50,192 bases of DNA from sequence record PZ445416.1. One strand, given 5' to 3'. This document shows, one piece after another, positions 20,557 to 40,548 of this stretch; the stretch's first letter is position 1, and each line of letters starts with the position of its first letter. The position numbers and the translations under genes are program-made. The stretch is from a phage. The notes under the pieces are model-generated. The model had not been told where the DNA came from, did not search any database, and saw only the letters and a program-made list of their open reading frames with translations.

Positions 20557-20579
20557 GCCCCTTGCGGGGCTTTTCTTTT
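20557..20579. terminator. bidirectional terminator between late block and cor
   Basis: GCCCCTTGCGGGGC hairpin flanked by T-tract downstream; lies between convergent genes. Confidence 0.7.
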
Positions 20580-20805
20580 ATATCGAGCAATCGTGAGATT
20601 TGAAGTTTTTCTCTGATACATAGTTGAAGGAGAATGGGTATCCAGCACGCAATACCATCTCCTTTCCGCGCATCTTAGAGCCAAAAACGTAAACCGAGTA
20701 CTCCGCGCCACCTGATTCATAAATTGCCGTGCAAGTACGCTCAGGCATCGATGAGCAACCAGTCAGGATGAATGCCGAAGCGATAATGGTGATTAACTTT
20801 TTCAT
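20578..20805 (-). CDS. cor: Cor-like superinfection-exclusion lipoprotein
   Basis: 75 aa with lipoprotein signal MKKLITIIASAFILTGC; own near-consensus promoter; position after tail genes as in T1/phi80-type phages. Confidence 0.6.
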   Translation of the reverse strand: MKKLITIIASAFILTGCSSMPERTCTAIYESGGAEYSVYVFGSKMRGKEMVLRAGYPFSFNYVSEKNFKSHDCSI

Positions 20806-20833
20806 TTGTATGTCCTCGTCGTTAGTGTGATTG

Positions 20834-20862
20834 CATTGTATGTCGCATTTACTTTTATTGCA
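20834..20862 (-). promoter_or_regulatory. sigma70-type promoter for cor-like gene
   Basis: Minus strand TTGCAA (20862-20857), 17-bp spacer, TACAAT (20839-20834), about 28 nt before the start codon. Confidence 0.55.
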
Positions 20863-20966
20863 ATAGCACGATTACAATTTTCGTGTAACAGGTGTCTATT
20901 TTTGTAACCGGAGCGGGTGTTACAAAATCCACCCCATCCGACCGCAGAGGGGTATGATAAAAACTC

Positions 20967-21022
20967 TATATAATATATATAGATAGATAATATTTAATTT
21001 TAGCTTTATATATATAATTATT
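20967..21022. repeat. TA-rich tract with element TATATAATATATATAG
   Basis: TATATAATATATATAGATAGATAAT... within the 525-bp non-coding gap between cor and the exonuclease gene; the same 16-mer recurs at 40251-40266. Confidence 0.7.
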
Positions 21023-21270
21023 GTTGTGTAACAGTTGTCTATCGTGTAACTGGTGATTTGATTGATTCGTCAAATTTCTATCATATACGTTCAAAATTTA
21101 ATCAATATGGATTCTACTTGTAGCTATCTCTGTATTTCTAAGAAAAATCGGTTACAAGTATTACACAGTAGACATCACATAAAAATAGACTTAAGCCATT
21201 GATTCCGTTAATGCTGGTTGTAACTTGAGCGATATAGACACGCTATTACACACCAATTACATGTATCCGA

Positions 21271-21298
21271 TTGACTAAACGCTGTTAATGGCTATAAT
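21271..21298 (+). promoter_or_regulatory. sigma70-type early promoter for recombination module
   Basis: TTGACT (21271-21276), 16-bp spacer, TATAAT (21293-21298); leader CATCGTAAACGAAGGAG before the ATG at 21330. Confidence 0.6.
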
Positions 21299-21329
21299 GG
21301 ATTCATCGTAAACGAAGGAGATAAACGCA

Positions 21330-22394
21330 ATGTTCCAGGTATTCACATCAAGTCAGCTTTCTAATGACGAGTATCATAGCAACGAAGGTTGGGCGGCAGA
21401 GTATGTAAGCGGTTCGAGCCTTGCAGAAATTTATCAGACTTGCCCGGCTAACTGGCGATTCAAGAAGAACGAGACGACTAAAGCGCTGGAGTTTGGTACT
21501 CAGTCGCACACCAACTTTGAGAGCCGAGATCTGTTTACTGCATCGTATGCGCGTTGTCCGGCTCCGGCAGAGTTTAAAGATCTCATTACTTCGCAGGCGG
21601 CGCTGGCAGCAAAATTAAAATCTTTTGGCCTGAAAGGTACATCCGGTAAGCAGTACCCGGACCTCATCAAAATGATGGTTGATTGTGGCGAAGACCTTAA
21701 CGTTCAATACCTGATTGAACTGATCGCAGAGGCTGAGGCTCGCGCTGAAGGAAAGAAACTCGTCGACGCTGATAAATACGACGCCTGCATGAAGATGAGA
21801 GCTATACTTGAACAGAACCCCGATCATGAAGCGTGCATCAACAGCGAAACAGCGCAGCGTGAAATCTCAATCTTCGGTGAAATATCCGGCGTCAAGGTTA
21901 AGGTTCGACTAGATCATCTTGACTATAAAGAGAATGTACCAGGTCGTGTACTGACTGGTTATGATGAGAATGGTGATCCGGTATTTGAAGACGTAATTTT
22001 CCCGGAAGCACTGATTATCACAGATTTCAAAACTACGATGAGCGCCAACCCGTTAGAGTTCCCGAGACTGGCATACAATCACGGTTATTACCTGAAGATG
22101 GCATTGCAGCATGACCTGCTACGTCGCGCAATCCAGGCTGGCGCTTTTGAAGGAAACTTCCCGGAAGATATTCCGATCGTAGTTCGATTGCTTGCGCAGG
22201 AGAAAAAAGAGCCTTATATCGCACTGGCTTACCGTATGACTATGGAGCAAATCAGGATCGGTCGTAACCAGTACATTAGCGTAGTCCACACTTACAAGGC
22301 TTGCTCTGAAATGGATGTTTGGCCTGGGTACGCTGGCGACGCAAGCGAGATCGAACTTGAAACGCCATCATGGGTGCGTTACCAAAATAAGTAA
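21330..22394 (+). CDS. PD-(D/E)xK exonuclease (RecE/YqaJ-like)
   Basis: Motifs VRLDHLD and IITDFKT fit the D...(D/E)xK nuclease signature; followed by Erf and SSB. Confidence 0.6.
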   Translation: MFQVFTSSQLSNDEYHSNEGWAAEYVSGSSLAEIYQTCPANWRFKKNETTKALEFGTQSHTNFESRDLFTASYARCPAPAEFKDLITSQAALAAKLKSFGLKGTSGKQYPDLIKMMVDCGEDLNVQYLIELIAEAEARAEGKKLVDADKYDACMKMRAILEQNPDHEACINSETAQREISIFGEISGVKVKVRLDHLDYKENVPGRVLTGYDENGDPVFEDVIFPEALIITDFKTTMSANPLEFPRLAYNHGYYLKMALQHDLLRRAIQAGAFEGNFPEDIPIVVRLLAQEKKEPYIALAYRMTMEQIRIGRNQYISVVHTYKACSEMDVWPGYAGDASEIELETPSWVRYQNK

Positions 22395-25599: not shown

Positions 25600-25620
25600 A
25601 ATATAAACTCCTTAAATAAA

Positions 25621-26651: not shown

Positions 26652-26696
26652 AAAAAACGCGTAGAAGGATGTTAACCCGCTACGCGTCGTTTGTTT
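26652..26696 (-). terminator. terminator/attenuator-like hairpin between HTH gene and primase
   Basis: Minus strand stem CGCGTAG / CTACGCG with 15-nt loop followed by TTTTTTA; long loop makes it weak. Confidence 0.4.
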
Positions 26697-27148
26697 TAAC
26701 TAAAAATGCTATTCGTCGTTCCAATATCTTCCTTCTTCACGACTCGCATAAACTTCTTGTTTTTGCATCGCTTCTCAAGGCACTTTCCGTTCCCATCAAA
26801 CTTCAGATCGAATCGTAGCCATGCCGCCCGGAATCCTTTGCAACCCTGTCGGCGGTAAGCACGATGCGCTGCTTCAGCGCCTTGCCATGAAATCATATTG
26901 CGATCTTTCCAGCCTTGCACCGTCTGATTGCTAACTTTTAGAGCCTTTGCGCAGGCCGCAGGACCACCGTAATATTCGATAAGAGCATCCAATCGCGCTC
27001 TCAGTCCTGCGCGCGTTTCTTCTTTATGGATATAAAATCCGCAGCGCTGGCGAGGCTTTTTATCTTTACCGCGTCGTGTTCCGTTGTTACCATTGATGTG
27101 ACGTTTATCGATTTCACCAGTAGACTCTGCGATACGTTTCATATTCAT
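26696..27148 (-). CDS. HTH DNA-binding protein (YdaS/Cro-like)
   Basis: Start moved to MNMKR after AGGAG; segment GGPAACAKALKVSNQTVQGWK resembles YdaS/XRE-type helix-turn-helix; basic N-terminus. Confidence 0.5.
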   Translation of the reverse strand: MNMKRIAESTGEIDKRHINGNNGTRRGKDKKPRQRCGFYIHKEETRAGLRARLDALIEYYGGPAACAKALKVSNQTVQGWKDRNMISWQGAEAAHRAYRRQGCKGFRAAWLRFDLKFDGNGKCLEKRCKNKKFMRVVKKEDIGTTNSIFS

Positions 27149-27161
27149 CTTAATTCTCCTG

Positions 27162-27204
27162 TAGCACTTTTTGCTAAAAACGTTTACTGTATGCCGTGTA
27201 TTAT
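27162..27204 (+). promoter_or_regulatory. Box-A cassette (putative phage promoter/operator) upstream of helicase
   Basis: TAGCACTTTTTGCTA, 22 bp, TATTAT; in the divergent gap between the HTH gene and helicase. Confidence 0.6.
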
Positions 27205-27242
27205 ATCGTAAACGATACAACGATTCAAAGGATTAAATAGCC

Positions 27243-34571: not shown

Positions 34572-34979
34572 TCAAATTCTTCTTTCGTAAGCTGGAGCCT
34601 TGCGCACAATTCGACGTTCTGATCTATCAATGTTTCTACGTTCGCCAAACAAATCTTCATCACTCATCTCTCCAATGTGCATCATTTCCCACGTATACCG
34701 ATTGTTGTAGCCATCAATACACATCAGCTTCATCATTACAGGGCGCTTAATCTTTCCCTTGCACCAGTAAAACCCATCCTTGCAATCAAGATAACCCTCA
34801 GTCACGCAGCGCGCGCAAAACTCCTTAGATAGCGCGCTTGTAAATTCACGGCGAGTCATTCCGGCGGCCTTAGCAAATCGCTCACTTTCCTTGTGGGCGT
34901 ATATAAATTTCGCTATGTGCTGTCGAGTGTATTTGTCGTAACCTTCGCAGAACCTGAACAGATCTAAAAGAAGAAGCAT
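34572..34979 (-). CDS. hypothetical Cys-rich protein
   Basis: 135 aa; Cys cluster CARCVTEGYLDCKDGFYWCKG; start lies 5 nt after the stop of the upstream P-loop gene. Confidence 0.5.
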   Translation of the reverse strand: MLLLLDLFRFCEGYDKYTRQHIAKFIYAHKESERFAKAAGMTRREFTSALSKEFCARCVTEGYLDCKDGFYWCKGKIKRPVMMKLMCIDGYNNRYTWEMMHIGEMSDEDLFGERRNIDRSERRIVRKAPAYERRI

Positions 34980-34983
34980 ATTA

Positions 34984-36552
34984 TTAACCCATCAGTCGAG
35001 GATTGATGAAAACAATATCATCAATCCGGCAAGTGTAGTTCATCTCTTCGAGCGTTATCAGCAGGCTGTCGATTCGCTCAGATACTTTCTGTTGACCGTT
35101 GAACGGCGTAACGTTACGGCACTTTGCAACAATGCTATGAATCGGAGCGCGCCCTTTATTCTTCTTTGCGATCTCAGTGATAACATCAATCAGCTTACGA
35201 GATTCAGCCTCATCACCAGCATACCCGGCGGCGCTTGCGGACGACAGATAAGTCCTGGAAAGCTCATTGAAAATCATAATCGCTTCCTGCATTGTCTCAA
35301 GATCAATCTCACGATTAGATCGGTTCGGTGATTCACCCTCCCAATTCTTGATCGTGTGAAGAACTGAAGCAATGCGCAAGGCGTGCTTATCGAACTTACC
35401 GAGATGACCGCGTAGCATTGAGTGAGAGTATTTGCCCCCGGCGGCGAAATCAGGCTCCATCGCCTGGCGAGCAAGGTTTAATTCACGCATAGCGTTACGG
35501 CTTACAGAGAGAACAACGTTGTCTTCCTTCATGATGTTGTGAACGAGTCTGTAATATTTGCTAACCAGTCCGCGATCGACTTCTTTATACAATGCATCAC
35601 CATTTTCATCACAAAGAATACGAGTACCTAAAAGCGGTTCCTCGCGAACCAATAGGAAACGCTCAGATACACCGATACCGCGCTGGCCTGCGTCCATGAT
35701 ACCCTTGATTGTTTCATCCTGCGCAATGACGCAGATCGAACCGACCGGGCAAAGAGATAAGTTGTTGTCTTGGTTTGAACGCGCGACCTCCATATGGTTT
35801 TTATCCCACGCCTTAAGGATAAGTTCGCTGTTTGATTTCTTATCAGAGCCGCCATAAGTCAGGCCGAGCAATGTGTTGATTGCTGTCGCCTCATCAGAGA
35901 TTACTGAGAAGTGACCTTGAACAGCCGCCACCTTCGCAAGACCTTCAGGTGTAGGATCTGATACAGCGAAAACAATATCAGCCATCTTCTTGATCTTTTC
36001 TTCCAGTTTTTCCTTGTCCTCGTATAGCGCTGCCGTCGTGTTACCCTTCGGGTCGTTTTTAATTTCCTTCTCGACCTGACGTAGCTGACTGGTTAAACGG
36101 ATACGTTCCTTTTTTCGCTCTTCATTCAGTCGCTGAATCTCTGCGCGCATAGGCGTAATCGCTGCGGAGTTAATCGCAGATTTACCTGTTGACGGTGGCT
36201 GGCTGATTACCATGTAAAGAGCGGTTGGTTGTTCTTCTCCGTGATATTGCACCCAAAACTTCCCGAGCATCGCGGCTGATATGCACCCAATGAAATGAGC
36301 GTACGCAGACGAAACAGGGAACTGTACAGACTCGGCCTTTGCTTTTGCATATTCGAATACCAGGTTATCGCCACCTAACGAAATCAGAGGGAACTTATCG
36401 TTGCCGCTATTGATATCGATCGGATCTTGCCAAAATGAAACTGAGTCACCATAGCTGTTTTCACGAATTGCTATCGCCACCGGATTAACTCCAGTGCTAT
36501 TGGCGATCTCAATAATCTGTTGGTAATTCAGTTTTGGCTTAATATTAAACAT
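34984..36552 (-). CDS. P-loop NTPase of unknown function
   Basis: Start moved to MFNIK after AAGGAG; Walker A-like QPPSTGKSA, then long coiled-coil and helical regions; no further family assignment possible. Confidence 0.6.
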   Translation of the reverse strand: MFNIKPKLNYQQIIEIANSTGVNPVAIAIRENSYGDSVSFWQDPIDINSGNDKFPLISLGGDNLVFEYAKAKAESVQFPVSSAYAHFIGCISAAMLGKFWVQYHGEEQPTALYMVISQPPSTGKSAINSAAITPMRAEIQRLNEERKKERIRLTSQLRQVEKEIKNDPKGNTTAALYEDKEKLEEKIKKMADIVFAVSDPTPEGLAKVAAVQGHFSVISDEATAINTLLGLTYGGSDKKSNSELILKAWDKNHMEVARSNQDNNLSLCPVGSICVIAQDETIKGIMDAGQRGIGVSERFLLVREEPLLGTRILCDENGDALYKEVDRGLVSKYYRLVHNIMKEDNVVLSVSRNAMRELNLARQAMEPDFAAGGKYSHSMLRGHLGKFDKHALRIASVLHTIKNWEGESPNRSNREIDLETMQEAIMIFNELSRTYLSSASAAGYAGDEAESRKLIDVITEIAKKNKGRAPIHSIVAKCRNVTPFNGQQKVSERIDSLLITLEEMNYTCRIDDIVFINPRLMG

Positions 36553-36581
36553 CACAATAAACTCCTTAGTTGACGGTGTAA

Positions 36582-36624
36582 ATGATACACCGCCAATGGT
36601 ACACGCGTTTTGCAAAAAGTGCTA
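36582..36624 (-). promoter_or_regulatory. Box-A cassette (minus strand) upstream of P-loop gene
   Basis: Minus strand TAGCACTTTTTGCAA, 22 bp, TATCAT, IR GGTGTA/TACACC. Confidence 0.55.
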
Positions 36625-36628
36625 TTGG

Positions 36629-37045
36629 TTATAAGTATTTGGCCTCAAAGGTTGTGCCGTCTGCGATACTAAAACCAACCTCTTCGCGAAATAAGGTCCA
36701 GCGACAACCATCTTCATCAAAGATGTAACCAGCTACGCCACCGAGAGCGCGACCGCTTTCAACCTGGTAACGCTTGCCAACTTTGAATGATTTTTTCATT
36801 GGGTTGCGATGGTCAAGCCCGGTGCACTTGAGCGTCTTTGTTTTCAACTCAGTGAACTTCGCGAAGAAGATTTCATCAGATCCGTGAATCTGTAATTCAT
36901 CATGCTTTTCAAGTTTTAAATACTTCCCGCATTTTAATTTTACTTCGCGAGTGCCATCATAGCGCTCACGACCTTTGTATAGGTTGTTTACTTCAAATCC
37001 TGTGATTTTATCTGCGTGAGTGCATTTCAGTTTGATGGATTTCAT
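36629..37045 (-). CDS. hypothetical protein
   Basis: 138 aa, RBS CAGGAG, downstream of Box-A cassette 37082-37124. Confidence 0.5.
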   Translation of the reverse strand: MKSIKLKCTHADKITGFEVNNLYKGRERYDGTREVKLKCGKYLKLEKHDELQIHGSDEIFFAKFTELKTKTLKCTGLDHRNPMKKSFKVGKRYQVESGRALGGVAGYIFDEDGCRWTLFREEVGFSIADGTTFEAKYL

Positions 37046-39092: not shown

Positions 39093-39130
39093 TTTCTTGC
39101 TCCTGATGTGTATCTCGTTTCGATGAGGTA

Positions 39131-39173
39131 ATTATGCCAAATCACACCGATCGAGTTTTAACAAAAAGTGCTA
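39131..39173 (-). promoter_or_regulatory. Box-A cassette (minus strand)
   Basis: Minus strand TAGCACTTTTTGTTA (stop of the methyltransferase-like gene inside box), 22 bp, CATAAT, leader CCTCATCGAAACGAGA. Confidence 0.6.
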
Positions 39174-39862
39174 TCCGCGATCGCTTTAAAAAATCCCCTG
39201 GGTGATAGGGATCGTATCAACTTAGTTTTGGCAGATTTGCCGCCTAGCTTGCTGTGCTGCGCAGAGTACCCGTCAGGCAGGCTTACAGGTTTTCTTTCAG
39301 GCATGACAAAATCGTCAGAGGTCCACAGACAAGTTTTCTTCGGGTAAGCATCGCGCGGCGCAATATACATAGGGAACCAGGGATGCGCGTCATTCTCAGG
39401 AAGATAGCCGCCATACTCCCAGGGATTGAAGGAGTGATTTGGTTTTCTCCACACAGACGACAGGACGCTAACCGGATTCTCAATGATGTAAGTCACACCC
39501 AGGCTATCGCCAATGTTCGCGGCAATCCTTGCGGTGGCAACGGCCTTTTCCTGGAATAACGGATCGCGTTCACGCTTTCTTGCGAAGTGGGCGGCACCGC
39601 TAACAGCCAGGTCGGTACACGGAGGGAAAGCCATAATGAAATCCGGCTTGCCATACACACCAGCGATAGCATCACGCTCAAACGCTGCGTCAATGAACAC
39701 GTTCACATACTCAATGTTCGGATGCTCCACCCGGGCATTGTACTTTGCATAATCCCCGTGATCGGCTCCGTCAAAGTTGAAGCACATCACCTTGTGACCT
39801 TGCTTAGCCAGTTCATGACCAGCAAGACCGGAACCGTCGAATAGCGACCAGATTAATTTCAT
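39158..39862 (-). CDS. C5-cytosine methyltransferase-like protein
   Basis: Start moved to MKLIW after AGGAG; motif order FDGSG (I), FPPCTDLAVSG (IV, Thr in place of the usual Gln), IIENP (VI); short at 234 aa. Confidence 0.55.
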   Translation of the reverse strand: MKLIWSLFDGSGLAGHELAKQGHKVMCFNFDGADHGDYAKYNARVEHPNIEYVNVFIDAAFERDAIAGVYGKPDFIMAFPPCTDLAVSGAAHFARKRERDPLFQEKAVATARIAANIGDSLGVTYIIENPVSVLSSVWRKPNHSFNPWEYGGYLPENDAHPWFPMYIAPRDAYPKKTCLWTSDDFVMPERKPVSLPDGYSAQHSKLGGKSAKTKLIRSLSPRGFFKAIADSTFC

Positions 39863-39895: not shown

Positions 39896-39939
39896 ATCAT
39901 ACACTGCCAGCCTGACCAAGTCGTTAGCAAAAAATGCTA
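39896..39939 (-). promoter_or_regulatory. Box-A cassette (minus strand) upstream of C5-methyltransferase-like gene
   Basis: Minus strand perfect palindrome TAGCATTTTTTGCTA, 23 bp, TATGAT, leader CCAATCAGTAGGAG. Confidence 0.6.
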
Positions 39940-40020
39940 TTCCAATAGTTGCTCATTATTCCACCAGTAATGGAATATCTGGAATAATTGCGATCCCGAT
40001 TGATCTCGAATGATGAAATG

Positions 40021-40090
40021 TGATTGTTGCATGATGTGCAACTGTTGATGTGATTGTTGCTTGGAATGCAATGATTGTGAGAGGGAGGAT
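40021..40090. repeat. iteron-like direct repeats and short palindromes
   Basis: 13-mer ATGTGATTGTTGC at 40028 and 40058 (30-bp register), plus palindromes TTGCATGATGTGCAA and TTGC-N6-TGCAA. Confidence 0.55.
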
Positions 40091-40129
40091 TTAGTGTTAC
40101 CCGGTTCGCCTGGTGGTCATCTCCATTTT

Positions 40130-40144
40130 TAGCAAAACGTACTA
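40130..40144 (-). promoter_or_regulatory. isolated Box-A-like site within AT-rich hub
   Basis: Plus strand TAGCAAAACGTACTA (minus strand TAGTACGTTTTGCTA); no hexamer at the cassette position. Confidence 0.4.
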
Positions 40145-40230
40145 TCGATTACACTTTAACTTGTCACGATTGTAATATTTGTCTAGAATCGCACTTGTGA
40201 CAAAATTACGCACTGTGACGCATAACAATA

Positions 40231-40300
40231 GACATATAGATATATGTATATATATAATATATATAGTGTTTTTTTTATTTATATATATAGATAATCATAT
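40231..40300. repeat. TA-rich tract with element TATATAATATATATAG (second copy)
   Basis: TATATGTATATATATAATATATATAG...ATATATATAGATAAT inside the 630-bp non-coding hub between the divergent early clusters. Confidence 0.7.
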
Positions 40301-40548
40301 TGTAATAGTTGTGTATAGCTGTCTTACATTGTCTAGCGTACTGTTGGCATATTTCTATCTGCATGTTTATATATACAGTACTTTTTTGAGAGCTATATAT
40401 TTCTATGGTTACTCTAGACAGCTAGACAAATGTTACACGGCTTAAAATTGACTCGCAGGCATTGACAGCTCTACATCACGTTGTCACAATGGCAATTGTT
40501 GACACATTATGACGCCATTTACACACAAATAGACAAAGAGGATATATT

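Follow-up and report, generated by a model that had tools for sequence, protein, structure and literature searches.

The 50,192-bp window analysed here (record PZ445416.1) is the complete genome of a T1-like phage (Tunavirus, Drexlerviridae). It contains two distant AT-rich intergenic regions, hub 1 and hub 2, each of which, as judged by sequence comparison, carries a single copy of an ancient cis-acting module that is found family-wide, measures ~90-140 bp and is centred on a TA-rich core. Of all sites considered so far, these modules are the strongest candidates for the unmapped replication origins of the T1-like family, although they could instead be early-gene control regions. We tentatively favour, at somewhat less than an even chance, the reading that the hubs are paired replication-origin-type modules, in which an unwinding element and binding arrays for a phage protein would lie within early-promoter hubs.

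Two modules evolving in concert

Local alignment of hub 1 with hub 2 recovered ~80 nt that are colinear and in the same orientation, with a score of 54 against 23.5 ± 2.9 (maximum 36) for shuffled sequences; the reverse-complement alignment scored 37. The comparison was extended to five genomes covering four subfamilies, namely the window, T1, TLS, Rtp and Rogue1. The z values of the hub-hub alignment against shuffles were 10.4 for the window, 15.9 for T1, 17.9 for TLS and 48 for Rtp, and Rogue1 gave a raw score of 76, without shuffle control. The within-genome core scores were 54, 66, 63 and 141 (76 in Rogue1), compared with 26-59 for 24 between-subfamily scores; the exception is the window's own 54, exceeded by two of the latter (58 and 59). 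Since copies within a genome are more alike than copies across subfamilies, the comparison indicates that the two hubs evolve in concert within each genome, which implies a single trans-acting partner that recognises both copies, gene conversion from one copy to the other, or a combination of the two. A third copy was not detected in the window by nhmmer, and 5,426 E. coli genomes and 72,556 plasmids, screened for satellites or cloned origins, contained no copy. An earlier note on this DNA had proposed a duplicated functional element, and this proposal is well supported by the paralogous colinear modules in 5/5 genomes from the four subfamilies and by their concerted evolution.

A nearest-neighbour stability scan identified the cores as the two least stable duplex sites of the window at every scan width, with stability z values of 5.3-5.7 for the hub 2 core (first), 4.8-5.3 for the hub 1 core (second) and 3.1-3.5 for the third site. 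The cores also rank first and second in T1 (5.9, 5.25), TLS (5.0, 4.6), Rtp (4.8, 4.3) and Rogue1 (5.1, 4.25). An AT-rich candidate unwinding element at the stability minimum, as an origin should possess, is thus present in 5/5 genomes, which fits one of the functions that the earlier note had suggested.

Nucleotide diversity (pi) among 15 T1-group genomes tells how strongly the modules are constrained. In the hub 1 TA core pi is 0.010, which is 20-fold below that of the mostly synonymous codon position 3 of recE (0.204) and similar to that of recE codon positions 1+2 (0.015); for hub 1 overall it is 0.060. The hub 2 core has a pi of 0.03-0.06 at 40240-40279, as against 0.2-0.4 in its flanks, which fall into two sequence classes. 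To judge by these diversity values, the hub cores are under purifying selection. The anatomy, duplication, conservation, concerted evolution and thermodynamic instability of the hubs are established here.

The shared 16-mer and the phased words

The observation that first drew attention to the two regions was a TA-rich 16-mer common to both. The sequence TATATAATATATATAG is indeed found exactly at 20967-20982 and 40251-40266, with no other copy in the window. Whole-window shuffles gave an expectation of ~0.01 such matches by chance with 2 mismatches allowed, and 0/500 dinucleotide shuffles of whole hubs shared a 16-mer. Under the harshest null, in which only the two TA-rich cores were shuffled, a shared 16-mer or longer appeared in 24/2000 trials (1.2%). 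Because of this last figure the 16-mer by itself is only modestly beyond what low complexity yields, and far more weight attaches to its surroundings. ATATATA is found 21 times in the hubs and never in the rest of the window. The earlier note had held that absence of the 16-mer from relatives would speak for chance similarity; it is, however, exact in hub 1 of 14/14 close relatives and in hub 2 of 8/12 informative ones, and the remaining 4/12, the T1 class, carry TATATAATATATAAG in hub 2, one TA unit shorter.

Both hubs have a common layout: a (+) triplet of short words, the TA core, another (+) triplet, an AT-rich stretch, (-) words, and a near-consensus rightward promoter. Word orientation is identical in the two, that is (+), core, (+), then (-), (-), and both cores start with CTATATAAT, which is retained across subfamilies. 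The words are spaced by 8-11 nt, or about one helical turn. TGTAAC and TGTCTA together number 18 in the 1.15 kb of the hubs against 22 in the other 49 kb, and 0/1000 hub shuffles reach 18; all of the 5 matches to TAGACA-N3-5-TTACA in the window lie within the hubs. As sequence, therefore, enriched and phased triplets of putative binding sites do stand next to the presumed unwinding element, as would be expected at an origin. The left array lies 83 nt from the 16-mer in hub 1 and 80 nt in hub 2, and the AT-rich stretch after the second (+) words measures ~100 and ~80 nt, respectively. The ~80-nt similarity, the phased triplets with their fixed orientation and the packaging end region of hub 2 had all escaped the earlier note, so that the feature is larger and has more structure than was described there.

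The type of word depends on the lineage, being TGTAAC-like in T1, Rtp and Rogue1 and TGTTC/GAACA-like in TLS-like phages, while the layout persists. In hub 1 of TLS-like phages the left words are kept though no leftward gene is present there, and so their role must go beyond that of sites upstream of a divergent promoter. We also considered whether co-variation of TGTCTA and TGTATA between the hubs reflects a changed binding specificity, and rejected this, as phages such as ISF002, ADB-2 and JMPW2 mix the types. In them a hub 1 of the window type occurs together with a hub 2 of the T1 type, and the word is thus no more than degenerate (TGTMWM). No hub words were found in the upstream region of the phage's own Cro-like regulator, and they are absent from the regulator/helicase divergent region and from the phage's other promoters, which carry another conserved element, ATAGCAC-N3-TTGYTA.

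Anatomy and setting of the hubs

The features of both hubs, and the genes considered as sources of a binding factor, are listed in Table 1.

Table 1. Coordinates of the hub features and of candidate binding-factor genes in the window
Feature	Position	Strand	Details
Hub 1	20806-21329	none	Entire cor/recE intergenic region, 524 bp (open reading frame list and sequence)
Promoter-like site for cor (leftward)	20835-20863	-	TTGCAA-17 nt-TACAAT; consensus scan, 9/12
Hub 1 left word array	20883-20927	+	Triplet TGTAAC/TGTCTA/TGTAAC at 20884, 20893, 20903, plus palindrome
Hub 1 TA core	20958-21020	+	16-mer 20967-20982; TATAAT 20969-20974; second TA tract ~21003-21019
Block colinear with hub 2 (40241-40316)	20967-21042	+	Local alignment
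Second (+) word triplet, hub 1	21026-21051	+	TGTAAC 21027, TGTCTA 21036, TGTAAC 21045; pi = 0.029
Two (-) word triplets, hub 1	21149-21261	-	21151/21160/21169 and 21235/21245/21256 (word map)
Near-consensus sigma-70 promoter for recE/erf/ssb	21271-21298	+	TTGACT-16 nt-TATAAT; 11/12
Cro/C2-like protein	26696-27220	-	Weak Pfam match, PHROG 'transcriptional regulator'; candidate binder
Two small proteins (135 and 138 aa) flanking DUF3987	34572-34979, 36629-37045	-	Candidate word-binding factors
DUF3987 (SF6/MCM-like) helicase gene	34984-36615	-	Candidate origin/word-binding factor
Hub 2	39920-40548	none	Between DNA methylase gene (minus) and first rightward early-arm gene (40549)
Two 24-nt direct repeats	40018-40071	+	Small hairpin each (GTTGCA-N5-TGCAAC); repeat family D3; hub 2 only
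Hub 2 left word array	40161-40203	+	TGTCAC 40162, TGTAAT 40171, TGTCTA 40180
Hub 2 TA core	40225-40299	+	16-mer 40251-40266; T8 run; second TA tract 40276-40293
Hub 2 (+) words after core	40300-40336	+	TGTAAT 40301, TGTGTA 40310, TGTCTA 40330
Hub 2 (-) word triplet	40407-40438	-	TAGACA 40415, TAGACA 40423, GTTACA 40432
Rightward early promoter	40462-40490	+	TTGACA-17 nt-CACAAT with TG; 10/12

Hub 1 is bordered by cor (20578-20805, minus strand) on the left and by recE/exonuclease VIII (21330-22394), which opens the recE/erf/ssb module, on the right. Its GC content is 0.32 at 21001-21300, and the region is 97.5% identical in JMPW1 and 93.7% in T1. The gap between cor and the recombination module, given as 525 bp in the earlier note, was confirmed with a measured length of 524 bp. 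That it is non-coding needed closer attention, as the re-annotated T1 record places a 46-aa coding sequence, CPTT1_049, within it (21062-21202 in the window, plus strand). The diversity of this reading frame is flat by codon position (0.060/0.087/0.095) and the more distant relatives show gaps there whose lengths are not multiples of three; we therefore rejected it as a real gene and judge the frame to be probably non-coding.

The repeated words around the hub 1 core were also confirmed, with GTGTAACA at 20883 and 21026, TGTTACA at 20918 and GGTTACAA at 21149. The left array extends, with TTACAC at 20883 included, to a point 19 nt upstream of the cor promoter's -35 hexamer, and it contains the palindrome TTTTGTAAC-N10-GTTACAAAA at 20900-20927; its GTGTAA, TGT.TA and GTTACA.AAT are invariant even where the RecE proteins of relatives are merely 78-80% identical. 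A second palindrome, TCTATATA-ATA-TATATAGA at 20965-20983, takes in the 16-mer. The second (+) triplet is a direct repeat of 20877-20899 with 87% identity, and TAGACACGCTATTACA at 21235 is one of the 5 TAGACA-N3-5-TTACA matches. The near-consensus promoter noted at the right end of the hub is present, is invariant across all aligned relatives including distant ones, and matches the place of an annotated promoter in the T1 record. The most variable stretch of hub 1, 20928-20957 (pi = 0.157), lies between the GTTACAAAAT word and the TA core; it holds a short complementary pair, ACCCC...GGGGT, of which T1 differs on both sides (CTCC...GGAG).

Hub 2, with a GC content of 0.30 at 40201-40500, is followed by a rightward arm of small early genes. 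Its central TATAAT has a potentially usable -35 hexamer (TAGACA-18 nt-TATAAT, 11/12), and further (-) words occur at 40520/40530. At the position of the (-) triplet, relatives of the T1 class have 3 x CGATTAACA where the other class has TAGACAGCTAGACAAATGTTACAC. A near LexA box, ATGTTTATATATACAG at 40363-40378 (CTGT-N8-ACAG with the first C changed to A), is retained in 9/10 relatives though the adjoining flank of hub 2 falls into two divergent classes.

In addition, hub 2 probably houses the packaging end region, because both the record starts and the mapped TLS cut fall there. The records of T1, JMPW1, phi2457T and FCWL1 begin at the window equivalent of 40026-40027 and other records at 40081-40117, while the start of the TLS record falls within the corresponding part of that phage's hub 2, where restriction mapping had placed the pac cut (HindIII 5876, EcoRV 2733). 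The hairpin-bearing direct repeats at 40018-40071 (also 40099-40114), with a folding z of -2.75, are probably the pac/terminase recognition or genome-end region, and are ~9 kb upstream of terS. In the T1 group the presumed packaging ends lie 130-220 nt to the left of the hub 2 TA core, and hub 1 is without those repeats.

Searches for known elements were mostly negative. Neither hub contains a DnaA box (TTWTNCACA), a strict DnaA search included, and GATC occurs 0 times in hub 1 and 2 times in hub 2, against 4.8 per kb genome-wide, without clustering, so that DnaA boxes and GATC clusters of a host-type (DnaA-dependent) origin are missing from the hubs. LexA (CTGT-N8-ACAG) and CRP (TGTGA-N6-TCACA) boxes were likewise not found in the hubs, and Rfam covariance models gave no match in either at E<=1. 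A single IHF-core match (21192) and two palindromic Fis-like matches (21089 and 40540) are all outside the shared block. The TA cores as single strands fold no better than shuffled sequence (z +0.76 and -1.46), and a cruciform or hairpin in the core was rejected on this ground. A -35 hexamer 16-18 nt upstream of the central TATAAT was not found in hub 1, nor is one apparent in either the TLS hubs or Rtp. Neither the words nor the core of the hubs correspond to the TLS-type 21-nt repeat (ATAGCAC-N3-TTGnTAAAA, expected ~76 nt before the start codon of a co-oriented gene), and the single ATAGCAC of hub 1 (20863) is not conserved among relatives.

A possible pair of replication origins

The origin reading is favoured because the instability of the core is family-wide, the words are iteron-like and lineage-specific, the left words of TLS are kept, and no other candidate origin is at hand. 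Two recent genome papers found no replication origin for T1-like phages, and for TLS no other region combining repeats with an AT-rich tract is reported (PMC11447400, PMC7718038). We also found no transcription-start or origin mapping for T1-like phages in the searchable literature.

At the hubs we infer protein binding, unwinding and replication initiation. The two modules may be the phage's two replication origins, like oriL and oriR of SPP1, at which a phage-encoded DNA-binding protein would coat the phased words and open the TA core, and the phage helicase and primase would then be loaded. As in T4 and T7, the process may be aided by transcription, either from the embedded TATAAT or from the early promoters on the flanks. 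Genes for a primase, an SF2 helicase and a DUF3987 protein are present in the family. The DUF3987 proteins have been assigned to the SF6/MCM-related replicative helicases and possess a C-terminal winged helix (PMC4889955), and one member is a demonstrated 5'-3' helicase (PMC11724360), which makes it a plausible loader at the hubs. The candidate binder would be DUF3987 itself, with its winged helix, or one of the small proteins encoded beside it, which the T1 record labels RipR-like helix-turn-helix in HHpred notes only. A screen for proteins unusually alike in T1 and Rtp, which share a word type, relative to TLS gave weak hints for the 135-aa protein and DUF3987 and was not decisive.

A more elaborate version, which we regard as unlikely, is that of twin origins at which the MCM-like DUF3987, via its winged helix or a helix-turn-helix partner, would be loaded head-to-head on the inverted triplets flanking the unwinding element, the copies being kept alike by gene conversion. 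If true, such loading would be a bacterial-virus counterpart of the archaeal origins built from ORB and unwinding elements.

Several observations weigh against an origin function. Unwinding elements normally require AT-richness and not an exact sequence, so that a promoter or a specific protein site would explain the nearly invariant core no less well. Promoters adjoin the outer arrays of words, the bipartite word motif ends 19 nt upstream of the -35 hexamer at both the cor and the recE promoters, and the central TATAAT of hub 2 has the potentially usable -35 described above. The helicase and primase genes are not adjacent to the hubs. DnaA boxes and GATC clusters are lacking, though these are expected only for a host-type origin, and T1 replication may be largely recombination-dependent.

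Transcriptional control and other explanations

The most serious alternative, which we consider possible but less probable than an origin function, is that the hubs are purely transcriptional, forming two immediate-early promoter clusters in which the triplets are operators or activator sites and the core is a promoter (TATAAT) or UP-like element. Either the Cro/C2-like protein or one of the small helix-turn-helix proteins would serve as regulator, and by acting on both hubs it would account for their likeness. The near-consensus sigma-70 promoters at the right end of both hubs are consistent with this, as are the mirror orientation of the word motifs upstream of the two hub 1 promoters, the conservation across subfamilies of CTATATAAT, which holds a perfect -10 hexamer, at the left edge of the core, and the TAGACA placed 18 nt upstream of the hub 2 TATAAT. 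Exact sequence conservation is also typical of promoters and operators, and at least one phage product, the Cro/C2-like protein with its weak Pfam match, is predicted to be a DNA-binding regulator. However, no plausible -35 accompanies the central TATAAT of hub 1, of either TLS hub or of Rtp, and the spacing from triplet to promoter is not conserved in hub 2, TLS or Rtp. The left words of TLS hub 1 persist without a leftward gene, and the words are absent from the ATAGCAC-N3-TTGYTA-type promoters and the regulator/helicase divergent region. Moreover, an alternating-TA tract of 60-70 nt, forming the stability minimum in 5/5 genomes, exceeds what a promoter needs. The origin and transcription models are not mutually exclusive, and a transcription-activated origin would combine both.

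The remaining explanations are less likely than these two. The earlier note had listed a nucleoid-protein binding site, and the TA cores might be sites at which host H-NS, IHF or Fis binds or nucleates and thereby bends or silences the early regions. The DNA preferred by H-NS is very AT-rich with many TpA steps, which is also true of the cores, and the IHF-core and Fis-like matches could be added to this; those matches, however, lie outside the shared core, and degenerate binders need neither exact conservation nor concerted evolution of the core. Furthermore, the words change from one subfamily to another although all these phages share the same enterobacterial hosts, and this argues for a partner encoded by the phage. 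Given also the lack of DnaA, LexA and CRP boxes, we do not favour this explanation and consider it improbable.

The recombination hotspot of the earlier note fares still worse, and is in our opinion very improbable. Here the TA palindromes would extrude cruciforms to be cut by a phage Holliday-junction resolvase, seeding RecE/Erf-dependent replication or module exchange. The 16-mer does sit within the TCTATATA-ATA-TATATAGA palindrome, hub 1 is directly upstream of recE, erf and ssb, and the hub flanks are mosaic, with a swap between cor and a lipoprotein gene and two classes of the hub 2 right arm. The folding of the core is nevertheless like that of shuffled sequence, the cor/lipoprotein breakpoint is inside cor at ~20755, away from the TA tract, and the phased words are left unexplained. 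The check for breakpoints at the TA tracts of mosaic relatives, which the earlier note had suggested, gave just one shared breakpoint event near such a tract (~40385-40402).

It is no more credible that the shared module is part of a terminase-recognised packaging signal. The mapped TLS cut in hub 2 and the record starts at 40026-40117 equivalents agree with a pac function for the neighbourhood, but those ends are situated in hairpin repeats, absent from hub 1, that lie leftward of the TA core. A second pac at hub 1 would yield a second restriction series, whereas the old restriction work on T1 and TLS reportedly reads as one pac series.

Finally, a chance match of two low-complexity AT-rich spacers without specific function has next to no probability, for although 1.2% of the core-only shuffles share such a 16-mer and the number of TA units varies among relatives, it is effectively refuted by the paralogous alignment beyond the 16-mer in five genomes, the concerted evolution, the 20-fold lower diversity and the layout conserved across four subfamilies.

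Dispersed ATAGCAC repeats

Outside the hub module, the window contains ~20 copies of ATAGCAC-N3-TTG(C/T)TAAAAC, all co-oriented with genes, which are the T1-group version of the TLS 21-nt repeat. They include copies on the plus strand at 25620, 29671, 41313, 42053, 43073, 44360, 45907, 46427, 47800 and 49610 and on the minus strand at 39174, 38757, 37125, 36619, 34463 and 6142, and the left margin of hub 2 has one or two copies of this type. Behind every copy stands an inverted repeat of 6-7 bp; its stems, as in AAGGCCA-TTTGATATAG-TGGCCTT and GGGGTA-TCTTGCTATAGT-TACCCC, co-vary and enclose a TGnTATAGT-like extended -10; downstream of it come a conserved CATCGAAACGA or ACCAATCAGAGGA and then the ribosome-binding site. 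A distance of ~22 nt separates the TTGYTA from the -10, more than a normal -35 allows. From its sequence, the unit resembles either a promoter, of the activator-dependent or the hairpin kind, or an RNA leader. The ~70 nt at 39103-39174 have 76-81% identity to a second place in most related loci, which is another sign that these promoter-like units are dispersed repeats longer than 21 nt.

Comparison with known systems

T1 is a classic T phage, and T1-like phages are common laboratory and fermentation contaminants as well as phage-therapy candidates. The pair of modules gives a precise location, open to testing, for a putative origin function or master early switch, and the hubs are defined targets for cloning, footprinting and engineering, for example phage-dependent plasmid amplification, decoy-based resistance or safe genome-editing sites.

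Among well-studied systems, the Bacillus phage SPP1 is a pac-type siphovirus whose distant oriL and oriR share initiator-binding repeats next to an AT-rich region; G38P is the protein that binds them, and gene 38 contains oriL. The hubs resemble it in having two distant sites with shared repeats and an AT-rich region. In contrast to SPP1, both hubs are intergenic, the binder is only a candidate, and there is no sequence similarity. In T4 ori(uvsY) and ori(34) and in the T7 primary origin, a promoter element directly precedes an unwinding element rich in AT, and a genome has more than one origin. The cores of the hubs similarly open with a conserved TATAAT followed by TA tracts, but those origins are not known to have phased flanking word arrays, and the hub TATAAT, mostly without a -35, is a putative promoter only.

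Iteron origins such as the lambda ori, located inside the O gene, and those of iteron plasmids have short repeats about one turn apart beside an easily melted tract, and in archaeal origins inverted ORB elements flank the unwinding element. The hubs share with these the phasing by about one turn and, as at archaeal origins, the inverted (+)...(-) arrays, and the family's DUF3987 helicase is MCM-related (PMC4889955). They differ in that the hub words are degenerate (TGTMWM) and only 6-8 nt long, and in that neither hub has an initiator gene beside it.

Within the T1-like phages a comparable element is the 21-nt intergenic direct repeat of TLS, aaATAGCACnnnTTGnTAAAA, whose function is unexplained (PMC11447400). 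It is likewise a repeated intergenic element, but its copies are scattered, point in the direction of the genes and stand ~75-80 nt ahead of start codons, whereas the TA core is present in the two hubs only. As for control regions, the phased putative sites near divergent promoters in the hubs recall the p4/p6 early-late switch of phi29. In that lytic phage multiple phased sites lie between divergent promoters in a single region, whereas the hubs are two copies evolving in concert, each centred on a genome stability minimum. Taken together, the hub module appears to be undescribed in the searchable literature, and in kind it agrees with elements already known, namely phage origins or control regions.

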